Program-made: the position numbers and the translations under genes
Shown here: positions 7,901-62,200 of the stretch, piece by piece
Numbering within the stretch: the stretch's first letter is position 1
How the letters are laid out: the number at the start of each line of letters is the position of its first letter
NCBI RefSeq assembly: GCF_036588685.1
Contig: NC_086374.1
Location: 38,006,001-38,070,000 of the forward strand
Reading direction: 5' to 3'
Length of the DNA: 64,000 nt
DNA from: Mytilus trossulus
Taxonomy: Eukaryota
The notes under the pieces: generated by a model
What the model was told of the DNA's origin: nothing
Database searches by the model: none
Seen by the model: only the letters and a program-made list of their open reading frames with translations

Positions 7901-10380
7901 AGTAGCTTTGTTTAGTGCTGGTATTTATAATATCATATCTTGTGTCTGCTAATGTTTATTTATTCTTAAAAGATATTAAAGTGCACAAACTGTTTATTGA
8001 TTTACTTCTTTTTTAACCAAAAGTTTTCTTACCCAAAGTCTACATAACACAGTACCACAGTAAACTCACTACATAACACAGTACCACAGTAAACACACAA
8101 CATAACACAGTACCACAGTAAACACAATAACTAACAAGAAATAAATACGCGACGCAACGCGACACAAAATATTGAAAAATTCAGTTCGTCACGCGTCACC
8201 CTGGTGCTATCCAAAATTCCTGGGGAGAACACTGCATGTACTAGTATAAGCAGGAAGCATAAAACCAGAGCTTCAGCCATTACATCATGTACATGTAAGC
8301 TGTTTTATTTTCAATTAATCTATTAATCAATCAATACTTAGGTTCAATGTTCTTTCCTCAATTACTTTGTTGAAAATTTGAATAAAGTCAAACTAATTAA
8401 TTAAAAAAAAAAAAAAAAAAAAAAACCCAAGTGGCTAGGGTTTGAAATATGCAGGGGCACACTTACTGATGGACCCTAAAATTCAGTGTTGGCTACAATA
8501 ATTCCTGCTTTTCACGTCAAGATCTTTATACATTGACTACCAAAATTTAAGCTGTTGGCTACATGACAAAATGTTTACCTCAACCCCTGAGTTCAAGAGG
8601 AAATATTTGAAAAACATTTTACCAAGGAGTTGGACAATGACAGATCCCAAATAATGACAACAGCTCACATAGAATTACAATACAACACAGAACTGAAAAT
8701 ACCTATATGATGGTCTCCTTGACAAAATTTCTCGTCTTTTCTTTCCTTCTGGGTCTTCTGTCAATTCATCATCTACTGGAGCTACCTAATAAAATATTTC
8801 ATAACATATTATATCAAATATATTTTATACTTGCATGTTTTCAAATCTTGATATTATTAATTAACCAACCCATTTCCTACAAATTTGTTGAGGATAGTGG
8901 TCTTCAAATGTTAAATTTAGAGGTACCTGATTTTGCAAAAAAACCCTATACAACTGCTATACTAAAGACACTGAAATCTTTTCTTTTACACAAGATTCAA
9001 TAGTGAAAAATGTCAGGTTTAGTCTTATGATGCAAGTTCATGCAACTTCAATGTACATTTTTTTGTTCATTCATACATGTACAATGGTTTGCCTACACTA
9101 ATGTTGATTTTCGCTGTTCACATTCCCATGTGGTACAGAATTAACCTGTACATGTACATTTGTACACTATATTTTAAACTCAAAAATGGCTTCTCTCAAT
9201 TCGAATTTTATCAAAGTCTGCCAATAATTGTTGATACAGAGATATGTGAGGCTTTTTTGTTCAGAATTAATTTTCAATAGTTTAAAGTGCAAATGCTGAA
9301 ATTTAAATTGTAACCCTCTATAACATGAAATCTATGCAAAAGTTTTAAAGTTAACAAACAAATACTGCTTGTTCAAGGCAAATACATGTAATATCCATGG
9401 CCTACATGTACATTTAATATATAAAGTACATGTACATTTATAAACCAGGTCGAACCCTAAACAGTTGGGGCAAGTATGGACACAACATTCCAGCCTGATA
9501 AAGCCCTGAATTTGGATTGTGATCAAATTTTTGACATAATTTGGGTTTCTGACACAAAACAAATGCCAAGATCTTACAATTTGTACAAATCTATCATGTC
9601 TATCATTTGTCTATAGTGCAATATTATACAATTACAAATTTCTTCGAACTTTCCAACATCTGGAAATTGAGAAATTTGGAGAGAAACAAGAAATGAAAAC
9701 TACTACCACCCCCCTTTTTTTGCAATTAGTCCAAAACCTGACATTTCTTTAAACATAATTAACAAGCAGTGTAAGGGAGGTAAATCAGAACATGCCCAAC
9801 ATGGTATATTAAATAATTTGAATTACCACCCTTACACTGCTTTTAAATTGTCCATTGACCAGAAAAACGTAGTTTCTCCCCTTTTTTGCCCCTAATTTCA
9901 AAACATTTTGAGCCATACCCCCCACAAAGTCAATACTAACTAGCCCTTCGTGTTTTGGAAACTTGTGGTATAACGACGACATGATAGCATTATACATTGT
10001 ACCACACAATTTTTTTTTGCGGTCGTATAAAAAACTGGTATAGCCAGTCAGGCTCATTAAAAACTTCCATCATCACAAAGAAGGACAGCAACAATCATGA
10101 CATTAGTGCTGTTTATTAACTTATTTTTTTTATTCCTACATTGTTTTTATACCATATGTACATCCATTTTTAAAATAACTTTCCCTTTCTAACCTGTTTG
10201 ATTAAAACTTACCCTTACGACCTGTATAGTCTGTACATTAGGTCCAGCTGTTTGAATGACTGAGGGTTGATTTGGGTGTATAACAGACTGTACTTGGATA
10301 GGTGTATTCATGGACATCTGTACAACAGATAAACCTTGGGATGTATCCAGGTCTCCATGAGATGGATGTACCTCTGTCAT
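1964..10380 (-). CDS. CREB: cAMP response element-binding protein (CREB1/CREM-like), 6 coding exons, 280 aa
   Basis: Minus-strand exons: 10213-10380 (ATG at 10380, in-frame TAA 6 nt upstream), 8703-8785 (KKRREILSRRPSYR, PKA site of the KID), 5501-5634 (KILNELSS), 4411-4581 (Q2: TIVQYAQGPDGQFYIP), 2932-3073 (RKRELRLLKNR), 1964-2108 (EAARECRLKKKEYVKCLENRVAVLENQNKTLIEELKALKELY, TGA). All introns are GT-AG with matching phases; total 843 nt. Confidence 0.97.
3622..4332. mobile_element. hAT-type MITE in a CREB intron
   Basis: Perfect 12-bp TIR TAGTGTTGTCAA...TTGACAACACTA; exact 8-bp TSD ATATAAAT on both sides; subterminal AACCGGTT repeats. Confidence 0.9.
6038..6797. mobile_element. piggyBac-like non-autonomous element in a CREB intron
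   Basis: TTAA on both flanks (6034-6037, 6798-6801); imperfect TIR CCCTTTAACCCCCAA / TTGGGGTCGAATGAG; GC-richer than its flanks. Confidence 0.65.
7225..8234. mobile_element. Non-autonomous TIR DNA transposon (hAT/P-like termini) in a CREB intron
   Basis: Perfect 16-bp TIR CAGTGTTCTCCCCAGG...CCTGGGGAGAACACTG; 7-bp direct repeat CATGTAC on both flanks; internal ~29-bp tandem repeat (acataacacagtaccacagtaaac, x3) at about 8042-8125. Confidence 0.88.
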
Positions 10381-14413: not shown

Positions 14414-15635
14414 TACGGAAGCGTATTAGCGCCACACATTTTTTTTTCTTCCTATGTTTGCGTTATAACGCAAACCTTTGCGTAACAACGCAAACCTTTG
14501 CGTTATAACGCAAACCTTTGCGTTGTAACGCAAACCTTTGCGTTTTAACGCAAACCTTTGCGTTATAACGCAAACATTTGTTTTATCTTATTTCTTATTT
14601 AAGATTCAAAGGAAACAGTAGTTATTAATGGAGGTGGCTGTATATATTAAAATTTATCACCTTTGTAGTCATTGCAAAGTAAAATGCTTGAATAATTAGA
14701 TCATATCAATGACTAATAATGAGCAAAATAATATAAGAAGGTGTGGTATGAGTGCCAATTAGAAAACTCCCCATCTAAGTCACTATTCGTAAAAGTAAAC
14801 CATCATAGGCCGAATTACGGTCTTCAACACGGAGCATTGGCTCACACAAAACAACAAACTATAAAGGTCCCCAAAAACGATATCCATGTTACTACTAGAC
14901 TAGTATATATTTACAAAGAAAATTGAGTAAATTGAGGTTTATTATACCTAAGAAAAAAATCAACCCTGCTAATATAGCTATAACCGAATATAAATATACT
15001 TCCAAAGTAAGCTCTCGTTTGAGAAATGTGTAAAGTAGGTTAGATTCCAATAAGCTACCCTTTGGCAATAAATGTATAGAATGAAGATGTTTTATTAATA
15101 AAATATGTTCTCTCTATTCACATTGCTACCCAAGCATCTTAAAAATACTACATTATATTGAAATGAAAATTCAATGACTTTCTATCAAAGAATCTTGATC
15201 ATATTCTGAGATTTAAAAAAAATATTTCCTTATTAATAATTCATTTTAAAGCAGAAAGATCATTTTGTCTATTTGACTTGGAGGTTTCACAATTGTATTA
15301 CATTATTTTTGATCTTTCAATTTAAATATGACTATATACTAAACTATATCTATTTTCTTGTTAAATTTTATACTTTTCTGATGCACAAATCAGTCTTATT
15401 TTATGAATATTTGCACTTCAAGTATTCCATTATTCCTATGCATATTTATTAAAATGAATTGGCCTTGTATTTATCTACTAGTAAATCACATCCGAAATGA
15501 ATGACTGACGGACATATATACAAAACTTAATGAATAATTGAAATCAAAAGGTTTGCGTTATAACGCAAAGTTTTGCGTTATAACGCAAACATAGGAAGAA
15601 GAAAAAAAAATGTGTGACGCTAATACGCTTCCGTA
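14414..15635. mobile_element. IS3EU-like non-autonomous element with subterminal 20-bp tandem arrays
   Basis: TIR TACGGAAGCGTATTAGCG...CGCTAATACGCTTCCGTA; 6-bp TSD CAAAAC; (ttataacgcaaacctttgcg) about x6 at 14457-14580 with inverted copies at 15549-15590. TAY...RTA ends with a 6-bp TSD fit IS3EU. Confidence 0.8.
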
Positions 15636-24537: not shown

Positions 24538-25153
24538 TTTTTATGCCCCACCTACGATAGTAGAGAGGCTTTATGTTTTCTGGTCTGTGCGTCCGCTTGT
24601 TCGTCCTTCCGTCCGTCTGTACTTCTGTCCGTTCGTCCCACTTCAGGTTAAAGTTTTTGGCCAAGGTAGTTATTGCTGAAGTTGAAGTCCAATCAACTTG
24701 AAACTTAGTATACATGTCCCTGTGATATGCTTTTTATGCCCCATTTATGGGCATTATGTTTTCTGGTCTGTGCGTCCTTCCATCCGTCCGTCTGTTCGTC
24801 TGTTCGTCCGTCCGTCCTTTTGTCCCACTTCAGGTTAAAGTTTTTGGTCGAGGTAGTTTTTAATAAAGTTGAGGTCCTATCTATTTGAAACTTAGTAAAC
24901 ATGTTGCCTATGATATGATCTTTCTAATTTGAATGCCAAGTGAGAGATTGTATCCATTTTCATGGTCCACTGAACATAGAAAATGATAGTGCAGATGGGG
25001 TATCCTTGTACTTGGGACACATTCTTGTTCTTATTTAGATGCCAGATTAGAGATTTTACCCCAATTTTTACACATAAAACACATTTAAGTACATTAAACA
25101 CAGAAAATGATAGTGCGAGTGGGGCATCCGTGTACTATGAACACATTCTCGTT
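24538..25153 (-). mobile_element. HINE/Helentron-like non-autonomous repeat, tandem partial copies
   Basis: Same family as 37160-37454 and 53021-53300 in the opposite orientation; (CCGT)n-type microsatellite, terminal TTATGCCC..GGGCAT palindrome, T-rich insertion site; absent from duplicate copy B. Confidence 0.65.
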
Positions 25154-38770: not shown

Positions 38771-39551
38771 ACAAGAGGCTGTCACAACGACAGCAAACCG
38801 GATTTATTAACATTTACTTGTAGTTTAAACATATTTTATTGTTCAAAATGACAAAAGGATCAGACACAAGTTTTACAACTTAGTAACGTCTTCTCCAAAA
38901 CAAATACAAAATATGCACATTAATTAATGAACATATGAAATATTTCTTAGTAACAAATAATTTAAGAATAAAGACATGAAAACAAAAGGAAAAATTTATT
39001 TGTATCCTGCCAATATCACAAGAACCATAACTGATGAACGGTGAAAGTGAAAATCGTCAATATCAAATTTGACCTCCATTTTGTCATCAGTATCAACATA
39101 TTAAAATTTAAAAAGCTTAGGTTGAATGGTTCATGAGTAAATGCACGGACACGACTGGAAAAGCAATTTTTCAATCTTTCAAGAACCATAACTCTTGAAC
39201 GGTCAAAGTCAAAATCGTCATTATTGATCTTGACCTCCATTTTGTCATGAGTAACAACATATTTTAAAAATTTGGGAAGCTTTGGTTGAACAGTTAATAC
39301 TTAAATCCACGGACATGACTGGAAATGCCATTTTTAAATCTTTCAAGAACCATAACTCCTGAACGGTAAAAGTCAAAATCGTCATTATTAAACTTGACCG
39401 TCAATTTGTTGTCTGTACAAACATAGCTTTGGTTGAATGGTTCATGAGTAAATGCAAGGACAACATTTGGTTGCCGCCCGCCCGGCCGCCCAGCCACCAT
39501 ACATCCCCAAATCAATAACTGACATTTTTGTCACAAAAATCCGGTTAAAAA
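38771..39551 (+). mobile_element. HINE-like element with three ~162-bp internal tandem core repeats
   Basis: Units start with caagaaccataact at ~39019, 39180 and 39344; followed by a (CGCC)n-like microsatellite; subterminal inverted aaccggattt / aaatccggtt. Confidence 0.7.
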
Positions 39552-42238: not shown

Positions 42239-45200
42239 TCAAGGTGTTAATCCATTCTTGTTGCATACAGTTTGGTTGAAATTCTGAACGCATTTGTTGA
42301 TATCCAGAATAAATGGAGATCTATTCAGAAGAGTTCCAAAAGAGAAACAGTTACCGCCTCCTCCAATCACAACAAATCTCCCGTCGCCAAGGTAACAGAT
42401 CTGGTGCTGGTGTAACAATATCAAAAAGTCAGGATCTGGTACCTTGAGAAGAAAAACAAAATTTGTTAACATAGAAATATGTCTTGCTAGCTCTACGAAC
42501 AATAACTTCATTGTCTGTCTTTAATACTACATATTGGTGTAGATAGCTAGTACTTTTAAAACTCTTCATATAACACTGAAGAATGATTACTGGAATATAT
42601 AGATGATGGATGTTGGTTGATGTCCAGCGACATTCAGGATGAGAACACATTAATGCAATATGAATATGAACCTTGCTTTGTACTAGATTGCCTTTTGACA
42701 TGCTGGTTCACAAGGTAACAATCTGCAAATCACTATACTAGTATGCAATATTTAGACCCCAAGAAAAGTTGTATTTATTCTTATTCCTTAATGCCCTGTG
42801 TTTAAAGGAGTTGCACAAAAAAAATTTGAAAGTGTTTGGTTTGAATTGGTAGTGAATAAAACCAAGGAAATCCCACACTCAAGTCTAGCATGCAGCCAAT
42901 AGACCACTGAGGCAGAAATAAAGTTTGCTTTAACAGTAAAACCATGTTAGATACTAATTCGTCAGCATTTCAAAGAGTCTGTTATAGGTTAGCCTTTGGT
43001 ATGTACAACAAAAAACAGGAAACATTTGAAAAATTTGAAAACATAAAATTTATGCAATTCACTGAATGAATTCTAAGGTATCTAAAAAAACCTAAGCAGC
43101 CTAATTTTTCAAATATGATAGTTATTGTGCAATAAAATTCCTTTTTAAATAGCTGAGTTTCAAATATTGTTAATCAAAACATCAAGATTAATTTTTACAT
43201 GTTTTATGGGCTAAGTATTCTGTTTCACTCTCCGTATTTTCATTGCTTGACAACCCATAGGTCAAGAAATTTATGTAATGTATACCCGGTCTAGAAATTA
43301 ATGTAATGTTTACAAAAACTTTTAATCTGCACAAAGTTATTTCAAGATTAATTGATTGTTGGTGTTTTATATATATGACACACACTGTAAGCTTAATTTG
43401 CCAGAAAGCAAGGAACTATAATGTATTACACAATTTATAAAATAAATTTATACATACAGAAAGTGCATATTCTGCACATGCACCTGTCAAAAGGTTGATG
43501 ACAGCAACACCTGGTGACTGATGACACAAGTTGACTCCACCAATCAAGACTAACAGATTATCTATGACTTGAGCTGTGTGAGAATATCTGTTAAATAAAT
43601 ATATCATCCATTTGTAATCCAGTATGATTTGTACAGAATTCAAATAATTAAAGAAAATAACATGAGAATAAATATGGAAAAATAAATGTTGATTGTTGAT
43701 TCTTTATGAAGAGCTCACATCATTTTTGACAGGCTAATAAAAACACTCACATGTTTAAGTTGCAAGGTCCAGTAACTCAAAAAGTTTTAATCTTCTTTTC
43801 ACCAAAAATTATACAGATTGTTTGACGAGCATATAAAACAATTATAAAAAACTTCATGAAATTTGGATAAGTTGTTCTCAAGTTACTGTGTGACATGTAT
43901 AGGACAGACAGATGGACATTTGTATACCATAATACATCCCATTAAAATTTTGACAGGATAAGAAAACAATAATGTACCAATATCTTCTAAAAAAAAAGTA
44001 CAGGCAGTGTAATAAAACATTAATATTCCTTGGCTTAGGAAGATATGAAGATTTGTTCACCCTCGAAAAGTCATATTTCCCTGGGTTGATGCCCTAGTGA
44101 AATAATTTTTCTTTGGTAAACAAATCTTCATATCTCCCTCAGGCACAGGAAACAAATGTATAATTTAAACAAATATGAGATAGCTTTTATGTAGCATGTG
44201 TAGTATAACATACCTTGGTAACAGCTCTCCAGTAACATCAAACCTGCTCCACACCAGGTTTTCTACATCCAACATACATATACTGTTTACAGGTCGTAGC
44301 TGAAGGTCAAGACCCCCAGCAATGATAACATGATTGTTCCAGATAGAGGCTGTATGTGATTGTCTGTATCCTGGTCCTGATACAGAGTTACAAACCTTAA
44401 AATATAAACTAGCTAAATAAGATGTAATGTTGGCATTTAATATATTTGTACATGGACTTTGGTTATAGATTATAATTTGTTAAATTGAAAGATTTTTTTC
44501 ATTCATCTTGAGTATAATAGTTCACACACTGAAATGTCTCCCCTACTTTCAGACCATTGATTTTAAGTTGATAGCTTCACTACAAACTATATTTGATAAT
44601 TGCATGTAATCAATACCTTAGTAAAGTTTAATAATTCATATTATGCCAACCTATGTCAGGGGGCATAACTTCTGAATCATTATTTCTGAAAATGTAACTT
44701 GCTAGACTTATATTAAAGATACGTTTTGTTTAAATTAGAGTCTTTTATTCATATTAAGGCCATAGTTGTTTTTTTATTTGTTTTGCGTCCGCGTGCGGGT
44801 AGGTTTTCGGCCAATTTGTGTCAAAAACAAACACAAACTTTTTTTTGTTCGTCAGTAGAAAATCCGTATTTTCCGGGTTTTTCCAGCCGTGTTTTTGTGT
44901 ATTCTTATACTCAAATCTATTTTGCGCTTTAAATAACAAGTACGCTCCTTATTTAAAGCGTTTAAGCGATCTTGACTTCGATACATGTGACAGCAGAAAT
45001 GGCCAGTATAAATGTGCCGGCGAGCGAGATCGTTTGTGTTTCACTTTTCAAAGATAAAAGGATCGTTCTGGCTCCATATGCCTTTCCGCTCGCCGGCACA
45101 GAAACTTTTTCTCAGATCCTAGAGAGCCTTTACGTAGCCAGCATAAGAGACACGTTAAATACAAGATTCAATGAACCTATCACCATAGGGGATAAAACTC

Positions 45201-48200
45201 TGATAAAATGTTATGTTTCATCTAGCTCTAACGGGGAAAAAATTGAAATGAATACATCTATCAAGGCTATAGATGCTGTTAAAATGTTTGGTGCATATGT
45301 AAGCTTTGAACTGACTGACAAATTTTGTGAAAAAACTAATTCAAATCAACAAAAGAGTGCCTTTGATGTGCTTATGTCTTCAAAAACACCTTTATACTTT
45401 AGTTCTCATGTTAAGTTTTGATTTATTTGTTTTAAATTTTGTTTTAAGAATTGTTTTCAATTAATAAAACATTTGAATGTATCAGAGCTTTTATTTAATA
45501 TTAAGATTCACTAAATTTGATATTGAAAAGATCAACCAATTTCACTGTAATGGTTCTTCCTTGGTACAGGTCTTACAGTAGGCGTTCCTTACTTGCTTGA
45601 AGAAAGAGTTACCTCCCATTTGCAAAGTTATCTTATTTTATAATTGAAATAAATTTTTATACTTTTTTAAATGAAAAATAGTAGTTTTTGCAAATATTTC
45701 TAATAAATTTCTTTAAATGATATCTACTGTCTGATAGGATAGGATAAATTAGTATGTACATTTTTAATTCCACAAGATATTAAGATATAAAACATAATTT
45801 CATTAGTTTATTTTCTGAAAAAAAAGTATGCAGAACAAAATATTAATATATTGCCAAAAAGTTTACATAAAGTATTTAAATTATAGGAAGATAACTCTGC
45901 AAATGGGAGATAATTCATGCTTAAAACATTATTGATTTGATACAGGGAATTATTGATTATACATAGGTTTTAATACAACATGACACATCTCAGATCAAAA
46001 CATGTCTCTTCTCAAAGGCTTCAGTATAAATGGGAAATGTTTGAAATACCAAGGCCATTTATGATTTCTCAGAATATAGTCATATCAAGTTTGTACATTG
46101 CTAAATTTCCTGTTTGTCATGTTTGCTCTTTCACTTAGATATGACAGTATTGATCTAAAGTCACTGTTAATCAGTCCAGAACTTAAGCAGACTCTTGTGT
46201 TATTTTCTTTGTGTGTGTTTTTTTTCCTTGCTGTCTGGTAGGTTTTCTCAGAATCAGTTGACACAAAACAAAGAAAAAAACAGACACGGCCTAAACTAAA
46301 GACAGCACATTTGGAAGCTATTATTTTTTATTATGGATACTGTTTGATTATATAGATAACGTTCTAATAATTTTAGTCTGCTTCATTGTCCTTCTCCATT
46401 TAGTTCTAATTGTTGATTTTTTAACTAAATGTGACTATTTCTTACCTGATTCAACTGTCCATTATCTGGATCAAACATATATCCACAGTTCAAGGCCAGA
46501 TGTGTCTCATTCCTTCCTCCGTATACAAATATCATTTCTTTACCTGTTTAGAAATGAAAAATATTTAACATACTGTAGATTATTCATTGTTTATATTTGT
46601 TAGATAACAATTTTTGTGGATTCTTTAGTTACAGGAGGACATTTAATGTAAATTTTTTATGGGAATGCATGCAGTCTTTGGCAAAACCACAAAATCAAAT
46701 ATTCACTGAAATGATGGTTTTCCTCAATAGACGAAAATTGATAGTTACAAACATAATTGAATCCACAATATTGAAAGATAAAAATTGATGTGGTTAAAGT
46801 TTAATTAATAATCATTAATGTAAGTTGTATTTCTAAATAAAACATACTCAGTCTAAATTGCCCTATATATATTTTGTTATATACATTCCCTCCTTAAAAA
46901 TAATTGATTTAATGTTTTATAAAATTGCAATAAAAGGACATCATGCCTTAGAATAAAATTGGACTTTAAAATAGCCCCCAATATTTTTTAAAACATAAAA
47001 ACTCTTTTTTTTTTATAATTCATTTGTTGACACTTTGAAAACAAAATCAACAAAAAGTTCACACTAACATCTCTGTCATCCATTAATTAAAATACTGAAA
47101 AACATACCAGCTTTCTGGCAGACAACTGCAGAGTGGCGCCATCTAGGAACTGGAATGTATCCTGTTTGTTTTATCACAGAACAAGTTAATGACATAGATT
47201 CAATATCCTTCATCTCCTTATTATCACAGCTCATGTTTTCCAAAATAACAATGTCTTTTTTATCACAGTTTGAGTTTATTTTATTACTGTCTAAGTCTAA
47301 ACTATCAGATAAACATTTAGTTTTTTCCTTTATGTTTGTATCTGATACATTATGTCTATCTATAGTATCTTTTTTTGAGTGTGTTTCATTAGATTTTGCA
47401 TTGAGATGTGAAGTAGTTAAGTTTGTTTTTTCAATCTTAACACAATTTTTATCAGAATGTCTGGAATCTGAACTCAGAATTAATGTTTCCTTTTGTGCAC
47501 AGTTCAGATTATTAGATTCATCTTTATTCTGATTTACTTTCTTGTCTTTTCTATTTAAAAATTCATAATTTGAGTCCTCTATTTCGGTTTCTCTTGATGC
47601 ACCATTTAATATATCTCCATGTGCCAACTCTGTAGATGTATGTGAACCTTTACTTAAACTATTTTCTGTCCCATTTGTGCCGTTATCTTTTGTTTGAAAA
47701 GATGTCTCAGATCCTTCAGTTAATTTTCCTGTTGACTCATGACAATTAATCAGAAGCTGAACAACTTGTTTACAAGAATAGGTAGGTGACATTCTTCCAC
47801 CAATAAGAATTGTTGAGCCATCCTTCAGTGAACACAATGTATGTCGAAGTCTTACTACTGCAAGAAAAGATTATTTATTCTACACACATTTTGTCATTCT
47901 AATAGGAATAATGGATTATTATGTTTTCTTGAAAAAAATATCTTTTTTCATGTATTGTACAGAGGGAAGGGTAATAAGAAGATTGATTTGTGGTCAATAG
48001 GGAGACATCAAACTCTACATTGTATCTGGTTTTTGTATAGATCTTCATGTGAGTGACTTTTGATTGTTCTTTTATTATTATTGTCAAGAATAAGTGTTAC
48101 AATGTCAACAAGTTGGATGTATTTGATAAATTCATTGAAGCTTAATATTATCACAACTTATCTTTCATTTGTCTTTTTAGTGCTACAGATCTGTAGTATT

Positions 48201-51200
48201 GTTTTTTTGTAAGCAGAATGATAAAGGTGTAAGGAAATTTACAATTTTTAGGTAAGCACATGCATGCCATGTAGAGATCAATGTGGTAATGTGTCCAGAA
48301 CAGTTGGTTGACTATTCCTCTATGGATAGTAACCAACTATTACTTCTATGATATGTGTCTGAATTATTTTCAGTCAATAAGTGCTTAGTATTTTTAATAT
48401 ATAGCTGAGCAATTTTGACCAATGTCCTTGTGGTGGAACCTAACATTACAGGGAGATAACTCTGTAAATATCAGATAAGCGTTTTAATCACATTGTCTTG
48501 TTAAGGAAATATTAAGCTTCTCATTGACCAAAATTACTGTTTGTTAAACTGCTGTAAAACCAATGAAATTTTTCTGATGAAGTGGTTGGTTCAAATTTTT
48601 TGAATATTTATATTTTGTGAAAGGGTCAAAGTAAACATTTTAGACATTAGTTAACTCTTTACAAACATCTTAAAAATCAATTTTTAAAGGCCTTAATAAA
48701 AATAATTAAAAAATTCAATGCAGATGTTTTGGAAGGTAAAAAATTTCTTCAAAATTAGGTAAGATAGGAAATAGTTTAATCTTTAGGGGCAAAAGATGGT
48801 TTGATATCAAACATACAGTTGCTTTAACATCATTTGTGCTCTGGTGGATAGTTCTCATTGACTATCATATCACATCTCATCTCCTTCATAAGTTCCTAAT
48901 GTATCATTATTTCTGATCCGAATCTAGAAGTTTCAATAGATTCCACATTTTAAAACCATTGCAGAAGACATATTACAACTACACTTACATATGCTACTTC
49001 AGTATTGATTGATTTTTGTGTTAAAATGCCACTTTTGGGCTATTTTGTAACAGTCGGTTTTTATTTGTGGAGGAAGCTGATGTGCCCAGAGAAAACAACG
49101 ACCTTCCATAAGAAAACTTACAATCCTAGTCAATTAAGATAGGGTTCGAACTCACTACCGCAGTGTTGACTGGCTAGTGATTACAGTAGTAACCACTTGG
49201 CCAACGAGGCCCTGATACTTTAGTATTATGACATCATAAAGCTTAAAGACAGAATAGTTTAACTTACTTTCAATTTGATCAAGATCTACATCTAGATTTA
49301 ATAACTTTGATTTGAATGTTTTTGCATCTGTAACCACAATTGATGACAACCTTTGATGTTTACCATACTCCTCCCCAAAACCTGCTACAGTAACTATGAC
49401 ATCATTGACCACTGTACTGGCATGACCAATTCTCAAAATACTTGTCAAATTAGAAACAGGTTCTATGGTCACACATGATGGAATGACATGAGAAGAGACA
49501 GAGACATCTTTTGTAAAACCTACAATACAATAGGATTGGTTCTTTCAGAATTAAACAATTAAACGTAATTATATAATGAATAGAAAAATATCTCTTAAAA
49601 AAGTAAATTGATGGTTTCAGTCATACTTGGATAATAATGTATTTGTATTCCTACAACTCTTTGCAGTTTTTAAGTTGTCTATTGATTATACCTTTTGTGT
49701 ATTATTTCTACCAAACCAGCCATTGTTCATTAAACACTTAAGGGAGTTCGCTTCTCAGTTTCAAAATAATAAAACTTTTCAAAACACTAGTTTATATTGA
49801 TTGGGGATTAATAAAGTAATAAAGTGATCTTATCTAGATTCTAGAGTTTCATTATTATCTAATATCCAATGATAGTAATTCTGTAAGATTAACTGTAAGC
49901 ATACAACACCATGTAGTGTGTAATCAAAAATCAGATATCAGTTTAAATCAATACATGGCAATATAGATAAAATTCAGAATTTTTGCTGTAAGCAAACAAC
50001 AATATGTAGTGTGTAAATAAAGTGTTTGTTTTACCTGATAACAGAGATTGACCTGTTTTATTGTAAGCACACAACCCTATGCAGTGTGTAATAAAATTAG
50101 TGTGTAATTTATCTGACAACAGAGATTCACATGTTTTGCTGTAAGCACACAACCCTATGCAGTGTGTAATAAAATTATAGAGTTTAATTTATCTGACAAC
50201 AGAGATTCACATGTTTTGCTGTAAGCACACAACCCTATGCAGTGTGTAATAAAATTAGTGTGTAATTTATCTGACAACAGAGATTCACATGTTTTGCTGT
50301 AAGCACACAACCCTATGCAGTGTGTAATAAAATTAGTGTGTTATTTATCTGACAACAGAGATTCACATGTTTTGCTGTAAGCACACAACACCATGTAGTG
50401 TGTAAATATATTATGTGTTTTACCTGACAGCAGAGATTCACATGTTTTGCTGTAAGCACACAACACCATGTAATGTGTAAATAAAGTGTGTGTTTTACCT
50501 GACAACAAAAATTCACATGTTTTGCTGTAAGCACACAACACCATGTAATGTGTAAATAAAGCGTGTGTTTTACCTGACAACAAAGATTCACTTGTTTTGC
50601 TATAAGCACACAACACCATGTAATGTGCACATTTCAGGTGCCATTCTTCATATTCATCAAAAGGCTCTAACCATTCCACTCTATTTCGTTCTTCTTCAGA
50701 AACTAAGTTATAATAAAATTGATTCATATCCATAGCTTCTGACTGCTCCCAACCCTGTGAAGTATAATTATAACTAATTTAAACTGAATGCGACACATTT
50801 GTATAAATAATTTACTTTTAATGTCAGAAAACTTATTGTGGTCAGGTAAACATGTCAGACCAAATTGAACTCAACGTGTAGTTGAAATATTCCTCATAGT
50901 TAGGAGCAACAACTAAAATCAAATTAATAGCACTGAAAAGATTACTTTTAATTACTTCCAAGAACTTTTTTGCAATGATTCTTAAGAAAAAATATTGAAA
51001 ATCTATTTCTCAAAGTAATGATAAAGATCACCTATTTGCAAATACTATTTATGGATCAACAAATCATTTAAATGACATTACGGGAAACAAACATGAACAT
51101 TTTCATTAAATAATGACTATTTCTTGAAGTTCATGTTATTTTGAGAAACTGGAACTTATTTTGAGGCTCAGTATAAAGGTAGCAGTTTCCTTCTTTTAAG

Positions 51201-54200
51201 AAAATAAATAGCCATTGTAAACAAACCAATGTAACAACTGTACATACTGTTTCTAGGTTAATATTTCATCCTTTCAATGGTCAAAGATAATTTTTCAACT
51301 CACAATTAATTGGCAACATAGCTAATATATCTGACACTTAAACCATCTTGTTTTTGTAAAATTTCAACCTTAGACAACAGATTTGTCTTTGCAACAAATA
51401 AAACACTTGTTTATAATAAAATTTTAACTTACCAACTGTTTAAATCTTTGTAACTGAGAATCCATGGTGGGGAATGCATTGATACATTTTAGAGCTGAAC
51501 CTATAGTTCTGAAATGGTTCTGCATAAATAATCCAAAGGAATCATTTGGGTTTATCTGAAAAAAACAAAAAACAAATATATAACTGCTACAAAATACTAT
51601 GTTAACAAACCAGTATTGGTGTTAGTAATAGCCAATGACCATGAATTCTCAGGGCACTTTTTATCATTTCTATTGCCTTAACCAAATGTATATAACTATG
51701 ACTCAAATGAGCAATAGTACATATCATACATAATTCATAATATTTATTTTTGTATTATTATAAAGTTATGTTGCAGTAACATGAAAAAGTGATAGATTTG
51801 TATCAGGAACTTTTTTCATGTTTATGAGTTTTTTTTAAATTTATGATAAGTTTTAAATGTCATTTGTCCAAATATAGCAATTGATGCAGAACTACATTCT
51901 AAAGTATAAAATATTGTTGAATTTGTTTATAACCTCTAACCCCTAACTTCCTCCATCTATCAAATATCAAATTCTTTGATTCTACCAAACATCAAACATG
52001 TGTAGAAATAAAACGTTTAAAATGCCTCATGATCATTTCAAATTGCAGACAAGAACTGATATAAGACCATCAACACAAAATACTATGTTGTTTAAATACA
52101 TAAATAAGGCTATTAGTTTTCTCAGTTGAAATGTTTAACATTGTCATTTCAGGGCCTTTTATAGCTGACTATGTGGTATGGGCTTTGTTCATTGTTGAAG
52201 GCCGTACATAGACCTATAGTTGTTAATTTCTGTGTCATTTGGTCTCTTGTGGAGAGTTGCCTCATTGGCTATCATACCATGTTGTCTTTTTCATACATCA
52301 AGTCTCTAACCTGTTCATATAATACAAAAGTAGAGTTGGTAAATGTTTCAGATGCCCACTGGATCACATTTGAGGAACTGAAATAGAAATTGAATCAATG
52401 TACATTACAAAAGAGAAACACTGGATTTAAATCACAAGCATTGACAAGTATTAATTGTAACTAAAGGAAAACTTATTTTGAAATGATATTCATCAACATA
52501 TTAAGGGTATCAAAATGGTTCAGAACTTTTAAATTCAAATTAAATAAATCTTGAAAATCATTACAAACAACTTGTTACAACTTTTGTTTTACATCTAATA
52601 TTTCAAATAGGAGGATTTTTAATGATCAGACAACATAATATTTACCATCTTTTTGTCATGTAGGTCAACACACATTCTGATAGCAGCAAAGTTGGATAAT
52701 CAAAATTTATACCACATATTTTCAATAAGGCTTCCAATGTATTATGCTGGGTCAAATCCACACCTAGCAACTTATATCCGTCTGTGTTTATTTCTGGAAA
52801 TAACAATAAGAAGTTGTACTAATGACCATTGCTAATTAATTGTACCCTCAATCAATGATGTTGGCAAGCAGGAAGCAGAATATTTAAGGAACTTACAATG
52901 TTGAACTGAGGAAGGTATAACCAGGTGATGCTGATTGCCATACATATATTAAGAATGTATATGACTAGTAGTTGCAGATTAAAATGTGACAAAAGTTTCA
53001 TATATTTGCATGACATTTTGAACAAGAATGTGTCCCCAGTACACGGATGCCCCATCCGCACTATCATTTTCTATGTTCAGTGGACCGTGAAAATAGGGTA
53101 AAATCTCTAATTTGGCATTAAAATTAGAAAGATCATACCATAAAGAACATGTGTACTAAGTTTCAAGTTGATTGGACTTCAACTTCATCAAAAACTACCT
53201 CTACCAAAAACTTTAACCTGAAGTGGAACAGATGGATGAACGAACAGACGGACGAACGAACAGACCAGAAAACATAATGCTGATAAATTGGGCATAAAAA
53301 TAGAAATTACAAAATCTCATTCAGAAAGATAAGGTTACAATAAAAATATAAGAGATATTTTGTATTTGGTATTGTCAGAGATAAGAAAACTTAAAGCATG
53401 AAAACCATGAGACAAGAACATTTTGTAACTTTTAAATGTAGAACCTAAATTAAACTGTTGTACCTATGTTTTGGATTTTGTCAAAAATGTATGTAGTATT
53501 TTTTTTGTCACTAATTGATACAACATTTTCCTTATTGTTTTTTATTGTTTATGATCCTCAAAATGGTTCAAACAGAAAACTTTTAGTAAAAGTGGACACA
53601 ACTCTTTATAAAGATTGGAGACAACTCACAGGTACAGAAAACTTACCAATCAAGGGATCTTCTTTCTCTGACTGTGTGAAATATCCTGATATCAAACTAT
53701 TCAGGGTAGAGTTTGTACTGATCACAGTGTGTTTTCTCTTTACTACATCACAAAAATCTATCTGTAAAAATAAATAAATATGTATGTCCTGCACAAAAAT
53801 ATCAGTTCGTAACTGTTTAACTATGCAATACATGTACAATAGAAAGGGAAAAGGGAAATCGACTGATGTCATCTGCTCTTTGGTAGGGTTGTTATCTCTT
53901 TGACATATTCCATATTTCCATACTCAATTTTATGGTAACTCTTACTATTTTGGCAAATTTGGGGTTGTTTATACTTGTCTTGAAAGTGAAGGCATCTCTC
54001 AAAATAGAGGACAAGATGGTGGACTTTTAGATATTTTAGTTTTTATGAATTATACTTATGGTTCTGTAAAATCTTCTTTTCTTACCTTATTCTTTAAAAC
54101 TTACCTCACAGAACATAACATCATCAATAAGTCCTTGAGATTTTAATCTGAAGTAAGCTGAATCAAACCCTGCACCTATTGATAAAATCTGAAAATAAAT

Positions 54201-57200
54201 AGATAAATCTGAATCAAATCCTGCACCTAATGAAAATCAATAGACAAATCTGAAACAAACACTGCACCTAATGATATAAATTGCTTCGCTCAGCACAGAT
54301 TGATACAAACGCAGAGGTCCAACCCTGAATAGTTGGGGCAAAAAGGAAATGGACACAATATTAGCACTTGAAACATGTCTGAATTTGGATTGTAATTAAA
54401 TATTTGACACATAAAAGGTTTCTGACATAGAATAATTGTAGTCAAAGAACTTAGATTTTGTTATAGGATTTGAAATTATATTCATTTTTTTGCTTTTGTG
54501 CAATACACTATGCTGTTGCAAATTTCTTGTCTATTCATTTACTATATTTTCTTGAAATGCTGATTATTTTATTACTACCTCCTACAGGCTGATTATTTTA
54601 TTACTACCTCCTATAGTTTTCCAAGTTTTAAATTGACCGCAAAAAGAGTGAAAATATATATTTCAGGGGCAATTACTCATTAACAGGATGACATATTTCC
54701 CTAATATTTGAAGGGTTAATAGATCTTGTTGTGCTTATCATTTTTGCAGTTTACTTATTTAACCTAGCTTATACATTATTCACAATAATGTTCAGCCAAA
54801 AATTGCAAAAAAAAATAAAATTCAGAGGAAACAGACAGGTACATTTTTCTCAAATTTCAAAATAAGGTAAATTGTTTAATGATAGAACAATGCACATTCA
54901 AAAAAAGGTAAAAAGGCACTCTACAAAAAAAATATTGGTATATATGAAATATAATCACATAAATAATACCCTCTAAAAGAGTGACCTCGCCTACTGAAAG
55001 AAAAATAAAAGTATTTGGTTTAACTGGTATAGAGATCATTCATTCTCGTATCTATTTAATACCTGTTTCTTTTTAGAATCGGATGATAGAAATTTCTTCA
55101 GTAAAAAGTCTATGGCTGTTGCTCTGATGAAGTATCCCCTGGAAAATACAAAATGAGGTTTTAATCTACAATTCTGTATTCTGTATTCTGTAGTCACTTT
55201 ATTCCTAATTTTAAACAAAGTGTAGCATACACCCTGTGTTTGGAATCATAAAGATCCTATAAATGTAGTTCTTACTTAGATGACCCACCATCACCATTTT
55301 AAATTGCAACACACATGTTTTATTGATACAGGGGTAAAATATTACAACATGAATGTCAGCTTTATCATCTAACCATATTGGAATACCAATGACCATAAAT
55401 GATTCTCCTGATTTATAAACATTATACTTATGACATCTATCTTCATGTTCCTTTATTACTTTTCCTAAATGCTAATGTAACTTTATTATCTACATTTCTA
55501 AAAAAAATAATAATTTGTAATAGGAATTTAATCAAAAAGTCAATACATTTTGTACAATGCAATAAGAATATTTTAGATAGTTTCCGGCAAAACTTAGATT
55601 TTTGGAAGATGTCTTCATGATCACTTTTGCTTTTTTAAAGGTCTATACCTACTACAGGATCTAAATAAAACATGTAAAAATAAATCAATTTTGTCCTTCA
55701 AGGGTAATTACTCCTAAATGGAGTTGACTGAAGTAAACAGATGTACATCGTCATATTAATTTACATAACTGCTTTTTTTTTCTGATGACTTTTTTAGCGA
55801 ACTAGTTTCTCTATATCTTTTAATGCAAATTCTGGGCCAGGTGTCGGAGCTAAAATCAGATTTTCACCTAACAAACAAACAATGTATGGTGTAAAAACAT
55901 CTTCAATAGGTAAAAGTGAATAACATGACCAACATTCTACAGCTGATGGTAATGATCATAGATTTTCTTTAGCAATACATTTAACTAACAATTTTCTCAA
56001 AATTAGAATATAATTAGAAAAAGATTAAGATTATAAATAAAATGAGATATACATTAGTACCTGAACCATTAATCCATTATATATTTCAGAAACAAATTAT
56101 AAATGTATGGTACCACAAATGCTTCAAATGCTCATTCTTAAATGGTAATAACAATTTTCTCTAATAACATAAAATTTAAAAAAAATTAAGCTGTAGAAAA
56201 TTTAACCATAAAGTAAAACTGGTTTCGTTTATGACTTTGACAAATTGAAAGATAAACACTTAACAGTGAATAATAAAAGTCTTGTCATCTGTTGCAATAT
56301 CCTTTATTTGTAGATTTCGATTGAATAATTTCACAACTGTCACTTGAATACCTTTGCAACATATTGTCATCATCATAGTAAACAAACTTATTATTATAAC
56401 TTTAGCAATCAGAAAAATAATACCAATAACATTGTCCTAAATAAGATAAGCTAGAACATGTAGGATCTTTGCATTATTGAAACATAAAAAGACAGAATAA
56501 CTAAATTCTTGCTAATTGGGCTAGAAAATGCTAGTCTTAAAGACTGTAAAGCATACTGCATAAATATGAATAAAAATGTGTACCGGTACATCTATTGAAA
56601 AAGGTTTTATCTAAACATGTGGTTGCATAGATCTCCATGTTCATTTGTCATGTTAATTGTATCTGTGAGCAAAAGAGGGGAGGTGGTCTGGGGTTGGAAC
56701 ACCCTTTTCTAGGACGATCAATGCATTTGAATGGGGACATATGGTTGGAACCCAGCCTTTTTAAAATGGCTGGATCTGCCCTGAAAATTGTTTTCTAATA
56801 TTTCAGTAATACATGTAATAAATGCGTCAAATGATTCATTCTATTAATTCTTTCAGGTGGTCATGGATGGCTACCCCATATCCTTTCATTTCTTTTCTAT
56901 CATAATAAACATTTACCTGTTAATTAATGGAGACCTCTTTGCTGTCTTGGAAACAAACTCTTTCAAGAATGGATCATTGAAGTAACCAGCCGTTGCCATG
57001 GAACACTTACTAACAATAGAACTGTCATTTGTTCCTTGAACCTGAATAATAGAATTGGTGGCATGATCATGATGATACAGGTTGTGGTCTTCTCTATCTT
57101 ACGATGGTATGATACTAAACACCTAACAGGAGGGATTGTGCTTGATTTTCATTTGATAAAGACATAATCTTTTAATTAGTTTACAATTGAGGTCTGAAGC

Positions 57201-59027
57201 TAGCCCGGCATGTCAGTAACTGCTAGTAGCTCTTTGCTAATCTATGTATCCTTGTCATTTTGCTTCTACTTTTCTAGCATTGGATTCAGACATCTCTTAA
57301 ACAGAGATTCACTGTGTGTATTGCTGTGTGTTTGTTCATTCTACATCGACTAGAGGTATAGCTGAGATTTGAGACCTCACAAAACATTTTTAACTTAGCA
57401 ACATTTTTTATGTCCATGATGTCTGTCTCAAATCAGAAGCCTCTAGCATTTGTTAGTGTCTTGTATGTTTTTTTTAAAAAAAAATAAAAATTTTGGTTCA
57501 TTTGTATGTTTCTGAGTTAAGTGTGACGTCCATTTTCACTGATCAAGTACGCATCTTTATTTCGGGGCCAGCTGAAGTCCATCTTTCTCGCTTTGATGAA
57601 GACCCATTGGTGGCCTTATGTGGTTGGTCAAGTTGTTGTCTCTTTACCATGTTAACACATTCCCTGTTTCCATTCTTAATTTTATGGAAATAGTATAATT
57701 TTGCATACAGAATATTTATGATACCTTTGAATAAAATTATTATAGATCTACATGAATGCCCCATACTGCATATTAAATCATTTGTATTCTATCAGGTTGG
57801 CTACAACACACCTCCCCATATAATTTAATCCTTCAATTTAGTGATCATTTGATAAATGCAAAAACAAAATGTTCTTACATTTTACCTGACTTTTTTTAAA
57901 ACTTAAAATGGGATACAATCATAAAAAATGCAGCAACTTTTCAAATAGATAAGTAGCCTATACCTGGTTCACTGAAAAGTAAACAGTGGATGACAAACGT
58001 GTTTAAGGTAATTACTTAAAAAAAAATTAGAGTTTCATGTATGGTTCTTAGAAAGAAGAAGTTATTTCATTTTAAGCATTTAATTTCAAATGATTACTTA
58101 AATGTTAAAATAGATATAAATATTTTACTTTAAATAAATTACACATTTTGGTATAAAAATCTTTAATTGACTTAATACTTTTTAAGTTTTATCAAAATAA
58201 TTCTGTAACTACTAAATAATACAGTCTACTATGAATAGAGCTTCTCTTACTCAGAAATATCAATATAATTAGTAGAATTTTCGTCCAACGGGATCGCCGT
58301 TTTTTATTTCACGTTCCACATGTTTTTACTTCTTTTTTTACGTTCAGTCGTGCAAGACGGGTGCCTCGTTCAACATGTTCTGCTAATTTAATTTTACGTG
58401 CATCGTGATTTTAAAAGTGTTATTTTGCGTGCTCAGTATTTTTCAAATAAAATTCAAACACTTTGCAGGGATCATCTCAATTTTTTTTAAAATCTGTATT
58501 ATAAATGTGTATACTAAATCGGGAATATCAAGTAAAACAAAGAGTTGATATATACAAGAAGGCAGTGATTCAGTCACAAAAAGGTTGACATAATAGTATT
58601 CATTTTTCGTGCAACGTTCATTACAGAAATTATTTCACGTTCAACGTGAAATTATGTCTTACTTCATGTTTTTGTTCGTGCAAGCACCCCCCCCCCCCCC
58701 TCATATAATCAAGATAAAAATTTATAAATATTTAAAAAAATATTATCGACCTTTTTTCTCTTTTTTAAATATTTTTTTTAAATTGAGGCCGAATCGACTT
58801 TCAACCATGGGCCGAACTGTCGAATCGACATGAAGATTTTTTTCAGAAATAAATTTCTGACGATGATGTGTATCAAATTATACATAAAGGCTACAGCCGT
58901 ACAGGAACAGAACACAAGTTAAGTGTACAGTGTAGAGAAGGGAAGTTGTTGTTTAAAACGGAGCATAATTATTTACCGCTGTTTCCCTTCTACTTTTACC
59001 ACTTTTGAATTTCTTCTGTTGTTCCAT
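42239..59027 (-). CDS. LCMT2: tRNA wybutosine-synthesizing protein 4 / leucine carboxyl methyltransferase 2 (LCM domain plus Kelch repeats), 15 exons, 861 aa
   Basis: Minus-strand exons: 58977-59027, 56917-57041 ([14 protein letters not shown]...RSPLINR), 55063-55138 (GYFIRA), 54105-54188 ([15 protein letters not shown]), 53647-53761, 52646-52793 (LLGVDL...[13 protein letters not shown]), 52311-52377 (FVLYEQ), 51433-51555, 50574-50754 ([16 protein letters not shown]), 49268-49519, 47108-47857 (PRWRHSA), 46446-46543 (VYGGR), 44214-44395, 43458-43587 (RYSHTA), 42239-42442 ([14 protein letters not shown]). All GT-AG with consistent phases; total 2586 nt. Confidence 0.95.
44758..46291 (+). mobile_element. 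PIF/Harbinger-like non-autonomous element in LCMT2 intron 12, carrying a 140-codon ORF
   Basis: Imperfect ~32-bp TIR (GGCCATAGTTGTTTTTTTATTTGTTTTGCGTC vs GGCCGTGTCTGTTTTTTTCTTTGTTTTGTGTC); TAA on both flanks; ORF 44999-45421. Confidence 0.72.
49880..50627 (-). repeat. 75-80-bp tandem repeat (~10 units) spanning the LCMT2 exon 9 / intron 9 boundary
   Basis: Unit landmarks (acctga/atctga) at 50572, 50497, 50422, 50347, 50269, 50191, 50111 and 50033, with degenerate units down to ~49880. Confidence 0.95.
53021..53300 (+). mobile_element. HINE/Helentron-like repeat, apparently complete copy, in LCMT2 intron 5
   Basis: Closely matches 37160-37454 and the reverse complement of 24538-25153. Confidence 0.7.
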
Positions 59028-59263: not shown

Positions 59264-62200
59264 ATGGCTACCACATCAGGAAAACTCGACGAAGACACGT
59301 TGATGACATTAAAAAACATTATATGGGGAACAGATATCAAAGATGAAGTGTTTAAAAGATGGACACAGGGTATTTATGTTCAGAGTGTGTCAAAACAAAA
59401 ACAAAAGTGAAACTAGGTTTAGACGTTCGAATGTAATTCAAGTACTGACTCTTTGCATTTTTTATTCACTATATTGATATGGGATATCGTGTAACTGATG
59501 ACTTACACAATAAATTATATAGCAGTACAATTTCTTCTGGTCACTTTTCACAATTGGGACTCTCTTAGACTTAGTCCAAATAATTACTCTTTAATCTCTC
59601 TTACCCCAAATAATTACATGTATGACGTCTTGCAAGATGTCATAATTATGTTGAGTAAGACCCCCTATGATGCCTTATGGCCTTAAATCATGCATGAGTC
59701 TCTGGACTCGCCTTCAAAAGTGCTTTGTGAAAACCCAGCAGGTCCATATGATTTCACTGTATCCTCAAAAATATTTAGCTGGACCTGGACACTGGAACAG
59801 GTCCTGTCAGAAAAACCCAAACTGACCTATCCATGTAATAACAGGCATATATTTTTTTTAAAACATTTATGTACAAGATATATTGACATGCTTTACAAAT
59901 ATTGTTTTAAAGGAGATTGTTTTTATTTTTGTTCATCAATGTAACGTAATATTACTGAAAAATTCTATCTTTTAAATTGTATATACATGTACACCAAGTT
60001 GTTTTTCTTGCAGCTTTTGAAAAGGGCAGGTTAATCTCTTCTCAGAGGGCAAAAAACACATACATATATTATAGTCAAAGATATGACTGAGTGCAGAAGA
60101 TACAAAAATGTAGATATTTCTAGCTGTTTTCATGGTTTTTTTTTACACAATCAGAGTTAAAATGAAGAATTACAACATTCAAATGCCAGGTAAACAGCAT
60201 TTGAATAACTAATTTGGCTATTAAACATAAGCCACTACAGATGAATAGCAATTTCATTTATGCAGAAATGAAATTTCAAGTTTTACGGTTGAGCATATAT
60301 GTGACGTGAAGGAAAAGCACAGATTATATATAATATATTTACATTTCTTTTCATTTACTCTAGTTTATTTTCAGGATTTGTATTTAGTGAAGATGAACCA
60401 ACAGCATTGGTACAATTCGATGGAGGTCCATGTGCAGTTATTGCACCTGTTCAAGGTTACATAATAAGACAAGCTCTGTTTACTGAGAATCCTGTCGATA
60501 ATTTATCTACATTAACAGGTAAGCAAAATTTATACCTTTGTAAGAATTAAGAAAATAAATAAAAGTTTCATGTAGACAAATAAGTAGATATAAAATTAAA
60601 GGATGAGGTATGTTGAGTGCCAATGAGACAATTGCAACTCTCCATTCAAGTCACAATTTATAAAAGTAAACCATTATACCACCAAAGTATGGTCTTCAAC
60701 GCAGAGCTTTGGCTCACACTGAACAGCAAGCTAAAAAGGACCCCCAAAAATTACTAGTGTAAAAGCATTCAAAAGCCATGAATTTACGGAGTGTTTTAAG
60801 AAATAGATTTAGATATAAACTTGAATTCACAGTTACATGTAACATGGTTAAAGCCCAAGTCAGCAAGCAAAAAATCCTTTGACTACTATGATGAGCTTTT
60901 TATAATCTGAAAATACTATGAATAGAGCAAAAATATAAGATTTCTTTTAAATAAACATTCACATGATCAAGAGAGAAACGTTAACATGCCCTTCATTTTA
61001 GAATTTTTCATCATTGGCTGTAAGTCCTAGCTGGAAACTAAAAGTTGAATCGCACATGTTTAATCCATCTTCATTCTTTATTTGTCTGTCCCAAACCAAG
61101 AGAGCCTGTAGTTCAGTGCAAGTTGTTGTCATATTTGGTTTTGTAGGCAGGCCGAGTTGATAATTCTAAAAATTAATGTTGCTTTAATACAGCAATCGCT
61201 CTTTCATACATCATATATATATAACGTAATAAACGTTACCAACAGCAGTGTCGTCAAGGGCATTGTTAAAACGCCGCCTGAAGATTACCAGAAGGCATGA
61301 AAGCGCTAGTGACAATATTTTAATGAACTGTTGTTATTTGATGTGAAATATAGTTTGCGAATTTAAAAATTTTATTATATATATATGTTGTTTTCATGCA
61401 AAATGAAAGGAAATGATTTTTTTCAGCCTGTATAAGATCAACGTTTGAATGAATTTCAGACCTACAATGTATAATGAGTATTGTAAAAAAAAGGCCCTAT
61501 TTCTTAAAAATAGTTTGTATGAAATAAATACTGAATAATACATGACACTCACTGAAGATAAAGTAGAGGTTCTTCATCCAAAATTACTTTACTAAAATTC
61601 AGGGCAAATGTCAAACTACAAATCAAATGTCCATCTTTTTACAGAGGAAAAGGCTAATGAACTGTTAGGATCAGCCCTAGTAGAAATCATGTTGGAAGTT
61701 TCATCTAAATCTGGTGTCTTTTCCGTAATCTACTTAGAGGATGATAAAAATGACGACGATACAAATAAAGATGAAAGTTGTAGTACATCAAAGGAAAACA
61801 GTGAGACGAAAAACGGCGAAAGTTGTGCCAAACGTCCTAAATTAGATGCAGACTTATTCCATACTAGAATAAGGTAATTTAAATTAAAATTTGAATAAAT
61901 AATATGTACTTGTAATTATACAGAATCAAAATGTGTTATGGTACATGTAAGAGGTATGCTAATGGACTGTTGTTGATCTTTTATAACTATAAAAAAAAAC
62001 TTCTTTTCATTGAATGTTTAATATTATTGAGAACTCAATGTTTACTAAACAAAAGAGTTCCATTCTGCAATAAGATTGTATGAGCTAGGTTTATTTATGC
62101 ATATATAATAGCCAAGAATCATTGTTTTATTATAAAATATGAAATCAGCCATCTTAAAACCCTTTCCTCCATAGTGACACCTTTTGACGCCACCCCCTTT

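Follow-up and report, generated by a model that had tools for sequence, protein, structure and literature searches.

Minisatellites that start across an exon–intron boundary and carry copies of the splice donor into the intron have been described in human genes. In intron 7 of human F7, the first monomer of a 37-bp VNTR spans the boundary and the donor is reiterated in the intron; in mutation tests the pseudo-donors were functional but unused, and the next donor took over once the first was lost (Borensztajn et al. 2006, PMC1557585). The same source describes LMNB2 (100-bp unit) and PDGF intron 4 (81-bp unit), where the authentic donor alone is used, and CBS intron 13 (31-bp VNTR) and intron 2 of the interferon-inducible gene 6-16, where the two nearest pseudo-donors are used as well (PMC1557585). 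A CBS allele is named c.1444_1467+7(16_21) in a second source (PMC2630376).

Here we analyse a stretch of 64,000 nucleotides of Mytilus trossulus DNA (the window), in which intron 9 of the LCMT2/TYW4 gene holds such an array. The array matches the F7, LMNB2, PDGF and CBS type, having a junction-spanning first monomer, reiterated donors and a dominant first donor. As in F7, the most upstream donor is used. However, the F7 unit consists of 4 exonic and 33 intronic nucleotides and breaks the frame, whereas the mussel unit consists of 54 and 21 nucleotides and its proximal copies keep the frame. In addition, the mussel array contains a mutated sub-block without donors, and donor use is known from RNA contigs only, whereas silence and back-up in F7 were established by mutation. 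LMNB2 and PDGF have units of similar size, likewise start with a monomer across the junction and use only the authentic donor, but they are mammalian and have 10–18 copies, whereas the mussel array has about 9.5, only three of the extra ones with GT. The CBS allele name implies a mostly exonic unit (24 + 7 nt), as in the mussel, and the CBS and 6-16 repeats also span the junction; use of the nearest two pseudo-donors, seen in both, is not seen in the mussel contigs, whose depth leaves room for minor use.

The locus adds a further natural case, here in a mollusc, of identical donors in a row with the first one used, and fits the upstream-first rule known from human F7. It reveals no new mechanism, but as a test case it has a small advantage over most: donors 2 and 3 would give in-frame products without a stop, so NMD would not hide a leak, and a leak could be counted in raw RNA reads. 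Searches for Mytilus LCMT2 and for Mytilus intron minisatellites or length polymorphism returned no published description of the array. Our preferred reading, with a probability of about 0.7, is that the array is a minisatellite made of the end of exon 9 and its donor, that the RNA that can be placed is spliced at donor 1, and that the downstream copies are likely neutral intronic decoys.

The host gene

Of the 861 residues of M. trossulus XP_063422761.1, 859 lie in fifteen exact peptide runs (59027 to 42242, minus strand); residues 200 and 408 fall between runs. The window therefore encodes this protein, and the repeat-bearing exon is exon 9 of 15. Exon boundaries were set from the exact runs:

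42239..59027, minus strand: LCMT2/TYW4 gene (tRNA wybutosine-synthesizing protein 4), 15 coding exons, start to stop codon
51433..51558, minus strand: exon 8, 5′ edge approximate (joint 50753/51432 in runs X2, X3 and X14)
50574..50754, minus strand: exon 9 (181 nt), which contributes its last 54 nt to unit 1
49520..50573, minus strand: intron 9 (1054 nt, phase 1, GT..AG), holding units 2–10 (a joint in run X2 skips the 1054 nt)
49268..49519, minus strand: exon 10 (linker and first propeller strands), acceptor 49519

The exon 9 peptide matches Mytilus LCMT2/TYW4 at 97–98%. The XP_063422761.1 model uses donor 50574, although this RefSeq model was perhaps built on the same assembly and is not fully independent. 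Pfam finds PF04072 (LCM, E 4.2e-19) and Kelch families, and the yeast LCMT2 structure 2zw9 matches residues 10–433 (E 4.7e-42). The host gene is thus an intact TYW4/LCMT2 of ordinary domain order, with the LCM methyltransferase domain at the N terminus and a Kelch propeller after it. The identification as LCMT2, made in an earlier sequence-only reading of this DNA together with the derivation of the array from the exon 9/intron 9 junction, is supported by the peptide runs and by the position of unit 1. Compared with its family, the normal product is ordinary save for a long Ser/Asn/Lys/Asp-rich insert (residues 448–623, pLDDT below 50), encoded by exon 11 (about 47106–47855, minus strand), that interrupts the propeller of Mytilus TYW4.

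In an AlphaFold2 model (22-row alignment, mean pLDDT 67), the copied peptide corresponds to the last methyltransferase strand (308–314) and a short helix (318–322). The junction is predicted to lie at G324, at the start of a coil (323–337) that leads from the methyltransferase domain to the first propeller strand. The span between the motifs KCxHY and RxGH, measured in 22 of 23 homologues (one has no second anchor), is 44 residues in all seven Mytilus proteins, 45–51 in nine other homologues and 134–208 in six. The linker thus carries 90–160 extra residues in 6 of the 22, and an insert at this point might be tolerated.

Anatomy of the array

The array is a head-to-tail repeat of about 9.5 copies of a 75–80-nt unit on the minus strand of 49880–50627. 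TRF reports it at 49981–50627 (period 75 nt, 8.4 copies, 90% matches, score 842). The window contains nine copies of a 21-nt core motif with at most three mismatches, each of them within 49979–50613 (expected 0.00 from 100 shuffles). Together with the cut into units, these results confirm the array of junction repeats that the sequence-only reading had described. The unit consists of the last 54 nt of exon 9 and about 21 nt of the intron start, and the first monomer spans the boundary, with the exon end at 50574:

50553..50627, minus strand: unit 1 (75 nt), authentic donor, exon end 50574 (joint 49518/50573 in run X2, CT..AC, side 181)
50478..50552, minus strand: unit 2 (75 nt), whose pseudo-donor at 50499 is intact and in frame
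50403..50477, minus strand: unit 3 (75 nt), whose pseudo-donor at 50424 is intact and in frame
50075..50388, minus strand: four near-identical monomers R4–R7 (78, 78, 80 and 78 nt; re-registered), delimited by pairwise distances and matched by the 108-nt contig of run X1
50014..50088, minus strand: unit 8 (75 nt), diverged, intact distal GT, exon-end position 50035
49880..50013, minus strand: unit 9 (93 nt), decayed and lacking a donor, then the partial unit 10

Before re-registration, the units start at 50627, 50552, 50477, 50402, 50324, 50246, 50166, 50088, 50013 and 49920 on the minus strand, and measure 75, 75, 75, 78, 78, 80, 78, 75 and 93 nt, followed by the partial tenth. Eight units have a donor-equivalent position. 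The last exon-like base is followed by GT at 50574, 50499, 50424 and 50035, and by AT at 50349, 50271, 50193 and 50113; unit 9 is without a donor. Donors 1–3 are identical from −3 to +9, and the donors of units 2, 3 and 8 equal that of unit 1 from −3 to +6. An in-frame TAA, private to unit 4, comes after the first AT position. This agrees with the earlier description of three proximal 75-nt units with intact donors, four subsequent AT positions and a TAA. Some details needed correction. The distal donor, placed earlier at 50033, is indeed intact and would introduce an early stop, but its exon end is 50035 and its GT occupies 50034–50033. The later units do lengthen to 78–80 nt, but unit 8, which carries the distal GT, returns to 75 nt, and 78 nt is a multiple of three and keeps the frame.

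Units 2 and 3 differ from the exon at 3–4 positions per 54 nt, and unit 2 has one Ser-to-Phe change (KTCEFLLS). The exon 9 of the window differs from copies 2–7 at two positions, 50592 and 50602 (minus strand). At one of them exon 9 encodes Ser; Cys is found there in the copies and in four other Mytilus species or haplotypes, so the intronic copies appear to retain an older exon state. Unit 8 (50054–50074, minus strand) has Asn where the exon has Ser (AYNKT), and the same Asn is found in exon 9 of M. californianus and in the protein P0004. This Asn could be a kept ancestral state, in which case the distal copies would be old, or a convergent change. Each unit in 50054–50538 (minus strand) also contains a TTACAG stretch, resembling a weak acceptor, 26 nt upstream of the donor position.

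Donor loss and reading frame

Joining donor 50499 or 50424 to the acceptor at 49519 would add 75 or 150 nt without a stop. The earlier proposal that donors 2 and 3 could extend the protein by 25 or 50 residues, in frame, between the methyltransferase and Kelch parts is correct as a coding prediction. The sequence-only reading went further and proposed that selection keeps donors in frame-preserving units and removes them from others, with copy number tuning a functional isoform or an NMD switch. Two observations speak for this: neither proximal pseudo-donor would break the frame or bring in a stop, and GT is present in each of the four 75-nt units, AT in each of the four longer ones (nominal p = 0.029).

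However, the AT monomers R4–R7 differ from one another by 0–4 changes (two are identical) and from the GT monomers R1–R3 and R8 by 10–15, and they have in common the GT-to-AT change, a 3-nt longer spacer and three neighbouring substitutions. Being near-identical and far from the GT monomers, they are one mutated monomer amplified four times. The p value of 0.029 is therefore discounted, because it counts one event four times. Frame is no better a predictor of donor state (Fisher's p = 0.49, 8 positions). The first lost donor (50349) would add 225 nt in frame and without a stop, whereas the distal donor that was kept (50035) would add 539 nt and give a premature stop at codon 137; in addition, the longer 78-nt units keep the frame, and unit 2 has changed Ser to Phe.

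A unit that keeps the frame and has no stop is not uncommon by chance. Among 411 intronic 21-mers starting with GT, 282 are stop-free in frame; multiplied by 1/3, this gives a chance of about 0.23 that a junction duplication keeps the frame and is stop-free. Units 2 and 3 are young or homogenised with the exon, as their 3–4 differences per 54 nt indicate, so that an intact GT is the expected neutral state; at their divergence we estimate a neutral expectation of about 0.86–0.9 per unit. As RNA, the three proximal units fold no better than shuffles do (z = 0.06), giving no support for masking of donors by structure. Selection on the splicing outcome is thus very improbable. The sequence-only reading had itself set selection against amplification of a single mutated unit, and it is the latter that the near-identity of R4–R7 shows. 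A switch dependent on copy number is likewise not supported, with the AT block a single event and the spanning RNA contig described below passing through donor 1.

Donor use in RNA contigs

Twenty-four sequencing runs were listed (shares 0.07–0.14), and four of them (X1, X2, X3 and X14) were placed on 48900–51800. The data are assembled contigs (depth 3–40), labelled RNA by guess, in which joints at GT..AG introns are visible and from which rare forms are dropped.

In X2, a single 1056-nt contig runs across exons 10, 9 and 8. Its joint at 49518/50573, with 181 letters on the shorter side, identifies donor 1 unambiguously. X3 has a 1033-nt contig that spans exon 8 and continues through exon 9 to 50573; a 117-nt contig shares 30 nt with it and extends into exon 10. 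The exon 9 contig of X14 stops at 50572 with 20 unplaced letters beyond it, which fits donor 1; no joint to exon 10 is listed for this run. Within the limits of these data, placeable RNA is spliced at the first donor, 50574. Exclusive use of this donor, which the sequence-only reading had named as evidence against its proposal, is thus what is seen in the contig of exons 8, 9 and 10, bearing in mind that contigs drop rare forms. Spacers 1 and 2 have no contig cover in the four runs, where the listed pieces explain all depth in the six bins of 50161–50742; we do not count this absence as evidence. No transcript with one or two extra monomers is found among contigs of these runs, which drop rare forms.

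One X3 joint, 49519/50349 (CT..AT), was considered as use of an AT donor and rejected. Its 29 exon-9 letters overlap the contig of unique exon 9 and were probably misplaced on unit 4. The locus illustrates a pitfall: when short contigs stem from other alleles, they can be assigned to the wrong repeat unit and so imitate alternative donors, including an AT donor that does not exist.

X3 shows some further features. It has two variants of exon 10 (49372–49519, depth about 25 and 14) but one upstream path only; the second variant has no upstream contig in place, a point against our preferred reading. An intronic contig (49737–49928) reaches the partial unit 10 with an 8-nt deletion at 49903, and the run has no contig from the array interior; the array of this animal may differ from that of the window. 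In all four runs, two intronic stretches, 49737–49820 and about 49090–49200, attract many contigs that are very deep and have numerous loose ends; these stretches are probably fragments of dispersed repeats or mobile elements.

The junction contig of run X1

The sole junction contig of X1 is placed at donor 2 (joint 49518/50498, depth 3.4, side 41), and the unique part of exon 9 has no cover in this run. A second, intronic contig of 108 nt is identical to 50203–50310 (0 differences), within units 5–6. Its end at 50310 lies 40 nt upstream of a donor position, at the point where the junction contig also ends.

To read the joint we used simulated 31-mer graphs. A junction sequence that equals units 4–7 at positions 11–41 from the donor and unit 1 at positions 1–10 accounts for the side of 41 as well as for the two ends of the intronic contig. 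With units 4–7 in the graph, unit 2 of the window gives a side of 43, unit 3 a side of 38 and unit 1 a side of 181; unit 1 or unit 2 gives 41 only if a coverage stop and the opening of the intronic contig happen to coincide. Translated, the fitted sequence reads KTCESLLS, as exon 9 does in M. edulis and M. galloprovincialis, whereas unit 2 of the window encodes KTCEFLLS. The simplest reading of the X1 joint is an ordinary junction from another allele, but the contig lacks an upstream anchor and may instead come from donor 2 of the haplotype that this animal carries.

X1 bears on a second explanation, in which donors 2 and 3 are used leakily in a minor share of transcripts, giving TYW4 extended in frame by 25 or 50 residues that are tolerated in the linker and have no function. 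The identity of donors 1–3 from −3 to +9, the stop-free inserts, the predicted insertion point at G324 on the methyltransferase–propeller boundary and the range of linker lengths among homologues (44–208) all speak for it, and two of the five human cases, CBS and 6-16, are precedents (PMC1557585). The placement of the X1 joint at donor 2 also speaks for it, but the ends of the X1 contig are reproduced by an exon 9 allele, and by unit 2 of the window only with a coincidental break. The X2 contig joins across both spacers via donor 1, and none of the proteins compared below is extended by the repeat. We consider leaky use possible but rather unlikely. A regulated or allele-dependent use of donors 2 and 3 in M. 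trossulus is quite improbable. In the TYW4 isoforms that it implies, the last methyltransferase strand and helix would be present once or twice more before the propeller, minisatellite copy number would set the interdomain length, and a coding repeat would be in the course of arising from a splice-junction minisatellite.

The same run also argues that the array is real. Its 108-nt contig comes from an independent source and is identical to the interior of the array. That the array is a false expansion of the exon end during assembly could be read from the other three runs (X2, X3 and X14), which have no array-interior contig beyond junction overhangs, but this is weak, as introns can go uncovered in RNA. 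The units carry ordered, shared substitutions, and independent contigs from another haplotype contain the spacer and the start of a second copy (below). An assembly artefact is therefore hardly credible.

Mytilus proteins and other haplotypes

In all seven junction-spanning Mytilus proteins (P0003, P0004, P0022–P0025 and P0037), LLSG is joined directly to FTKD. The seven comprise proteins of four named species and one Logan protein, and 4 of the 19 members of the Mytilus cluster lie outside those listed. None of the proteins P0003–P0038 has the motif twice. Among all 53 proteins, the motif occurs twice only in the read-through translation of the window itself and in two genomic read-through ORFs, P0039 and P0045, from Logan contigs of 1113 and 1779 nt. 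These two read [18 protein letters not shown] and then end, and the shared last residue suggests a true stop.

Another Mytilus haplotype thus has the spacer and the start of a second copy, but its frame closes 16 codons past the donor, before a second donor (codon 25) would be reached. The duplication is therefore older than the haplotype of the window, and the in-frame ladder is not conserved, which argues further against selection for it. The ending of P0039 and P0045 resembles the partial unit 10 of the window ([10 protein letters not shown], then a stop), and the other haplotype may have only the exon copy and one partial copy. This comparison is at the protein level and concerns a different, truncated second copy.

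A protein search with the repeat part alone gave no match among 704 candidates at E ≤ 0.01, and the read-through ORF of the window, in either of its two forms, is absent from the protein collection. The repeat core had no match in the metagenome scan. An alignment-based metagenome scan returned 23 loci, all 47–68% identical to the query and none from Mytilus. Fourteen of them carry the anchor motif and have the 54-nt segment once; several read on without a stop and are perhaps not comparable.

A model for the origin of the array

In our preferred reading, the array would have started with a 75-nt duplication across the exon 9/intron 9 junction, before the haplotype of the window arose. Slippage or unequal crossing-over between direct repeats 75 nt apart could then have enlarged it. 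One copy would have lost its GT, gained 3 nt and several substitutions, and been amplified four times, while the two proximal copies are either young or have been homogenised with the exon. The copies would be silent because, among several identical donors, the one furthest upstream is chosen, as found by mutation in human F7 (PMC1557585). The decoy donors would then act only as a back-up, if donor 1 were damaged.

Neighbouring features

TRF finds other tandem repeats in the window, at 24567–24917, 39019–39407, 14457–14580 and 8040–8136, with periods of 187, 164, 20 and 29, respectively. At its 5′ end, LCMT2 (start codon at 59027, minus strand) lies head to head with a plus-strand gene that starts at 59264, the two start codons being about 236 nt apart. 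The exons of this neighbour resemble MINDY3/FAM188A, its putative identity. The arrangement suggests that the two genes share a bidirectional promoter.
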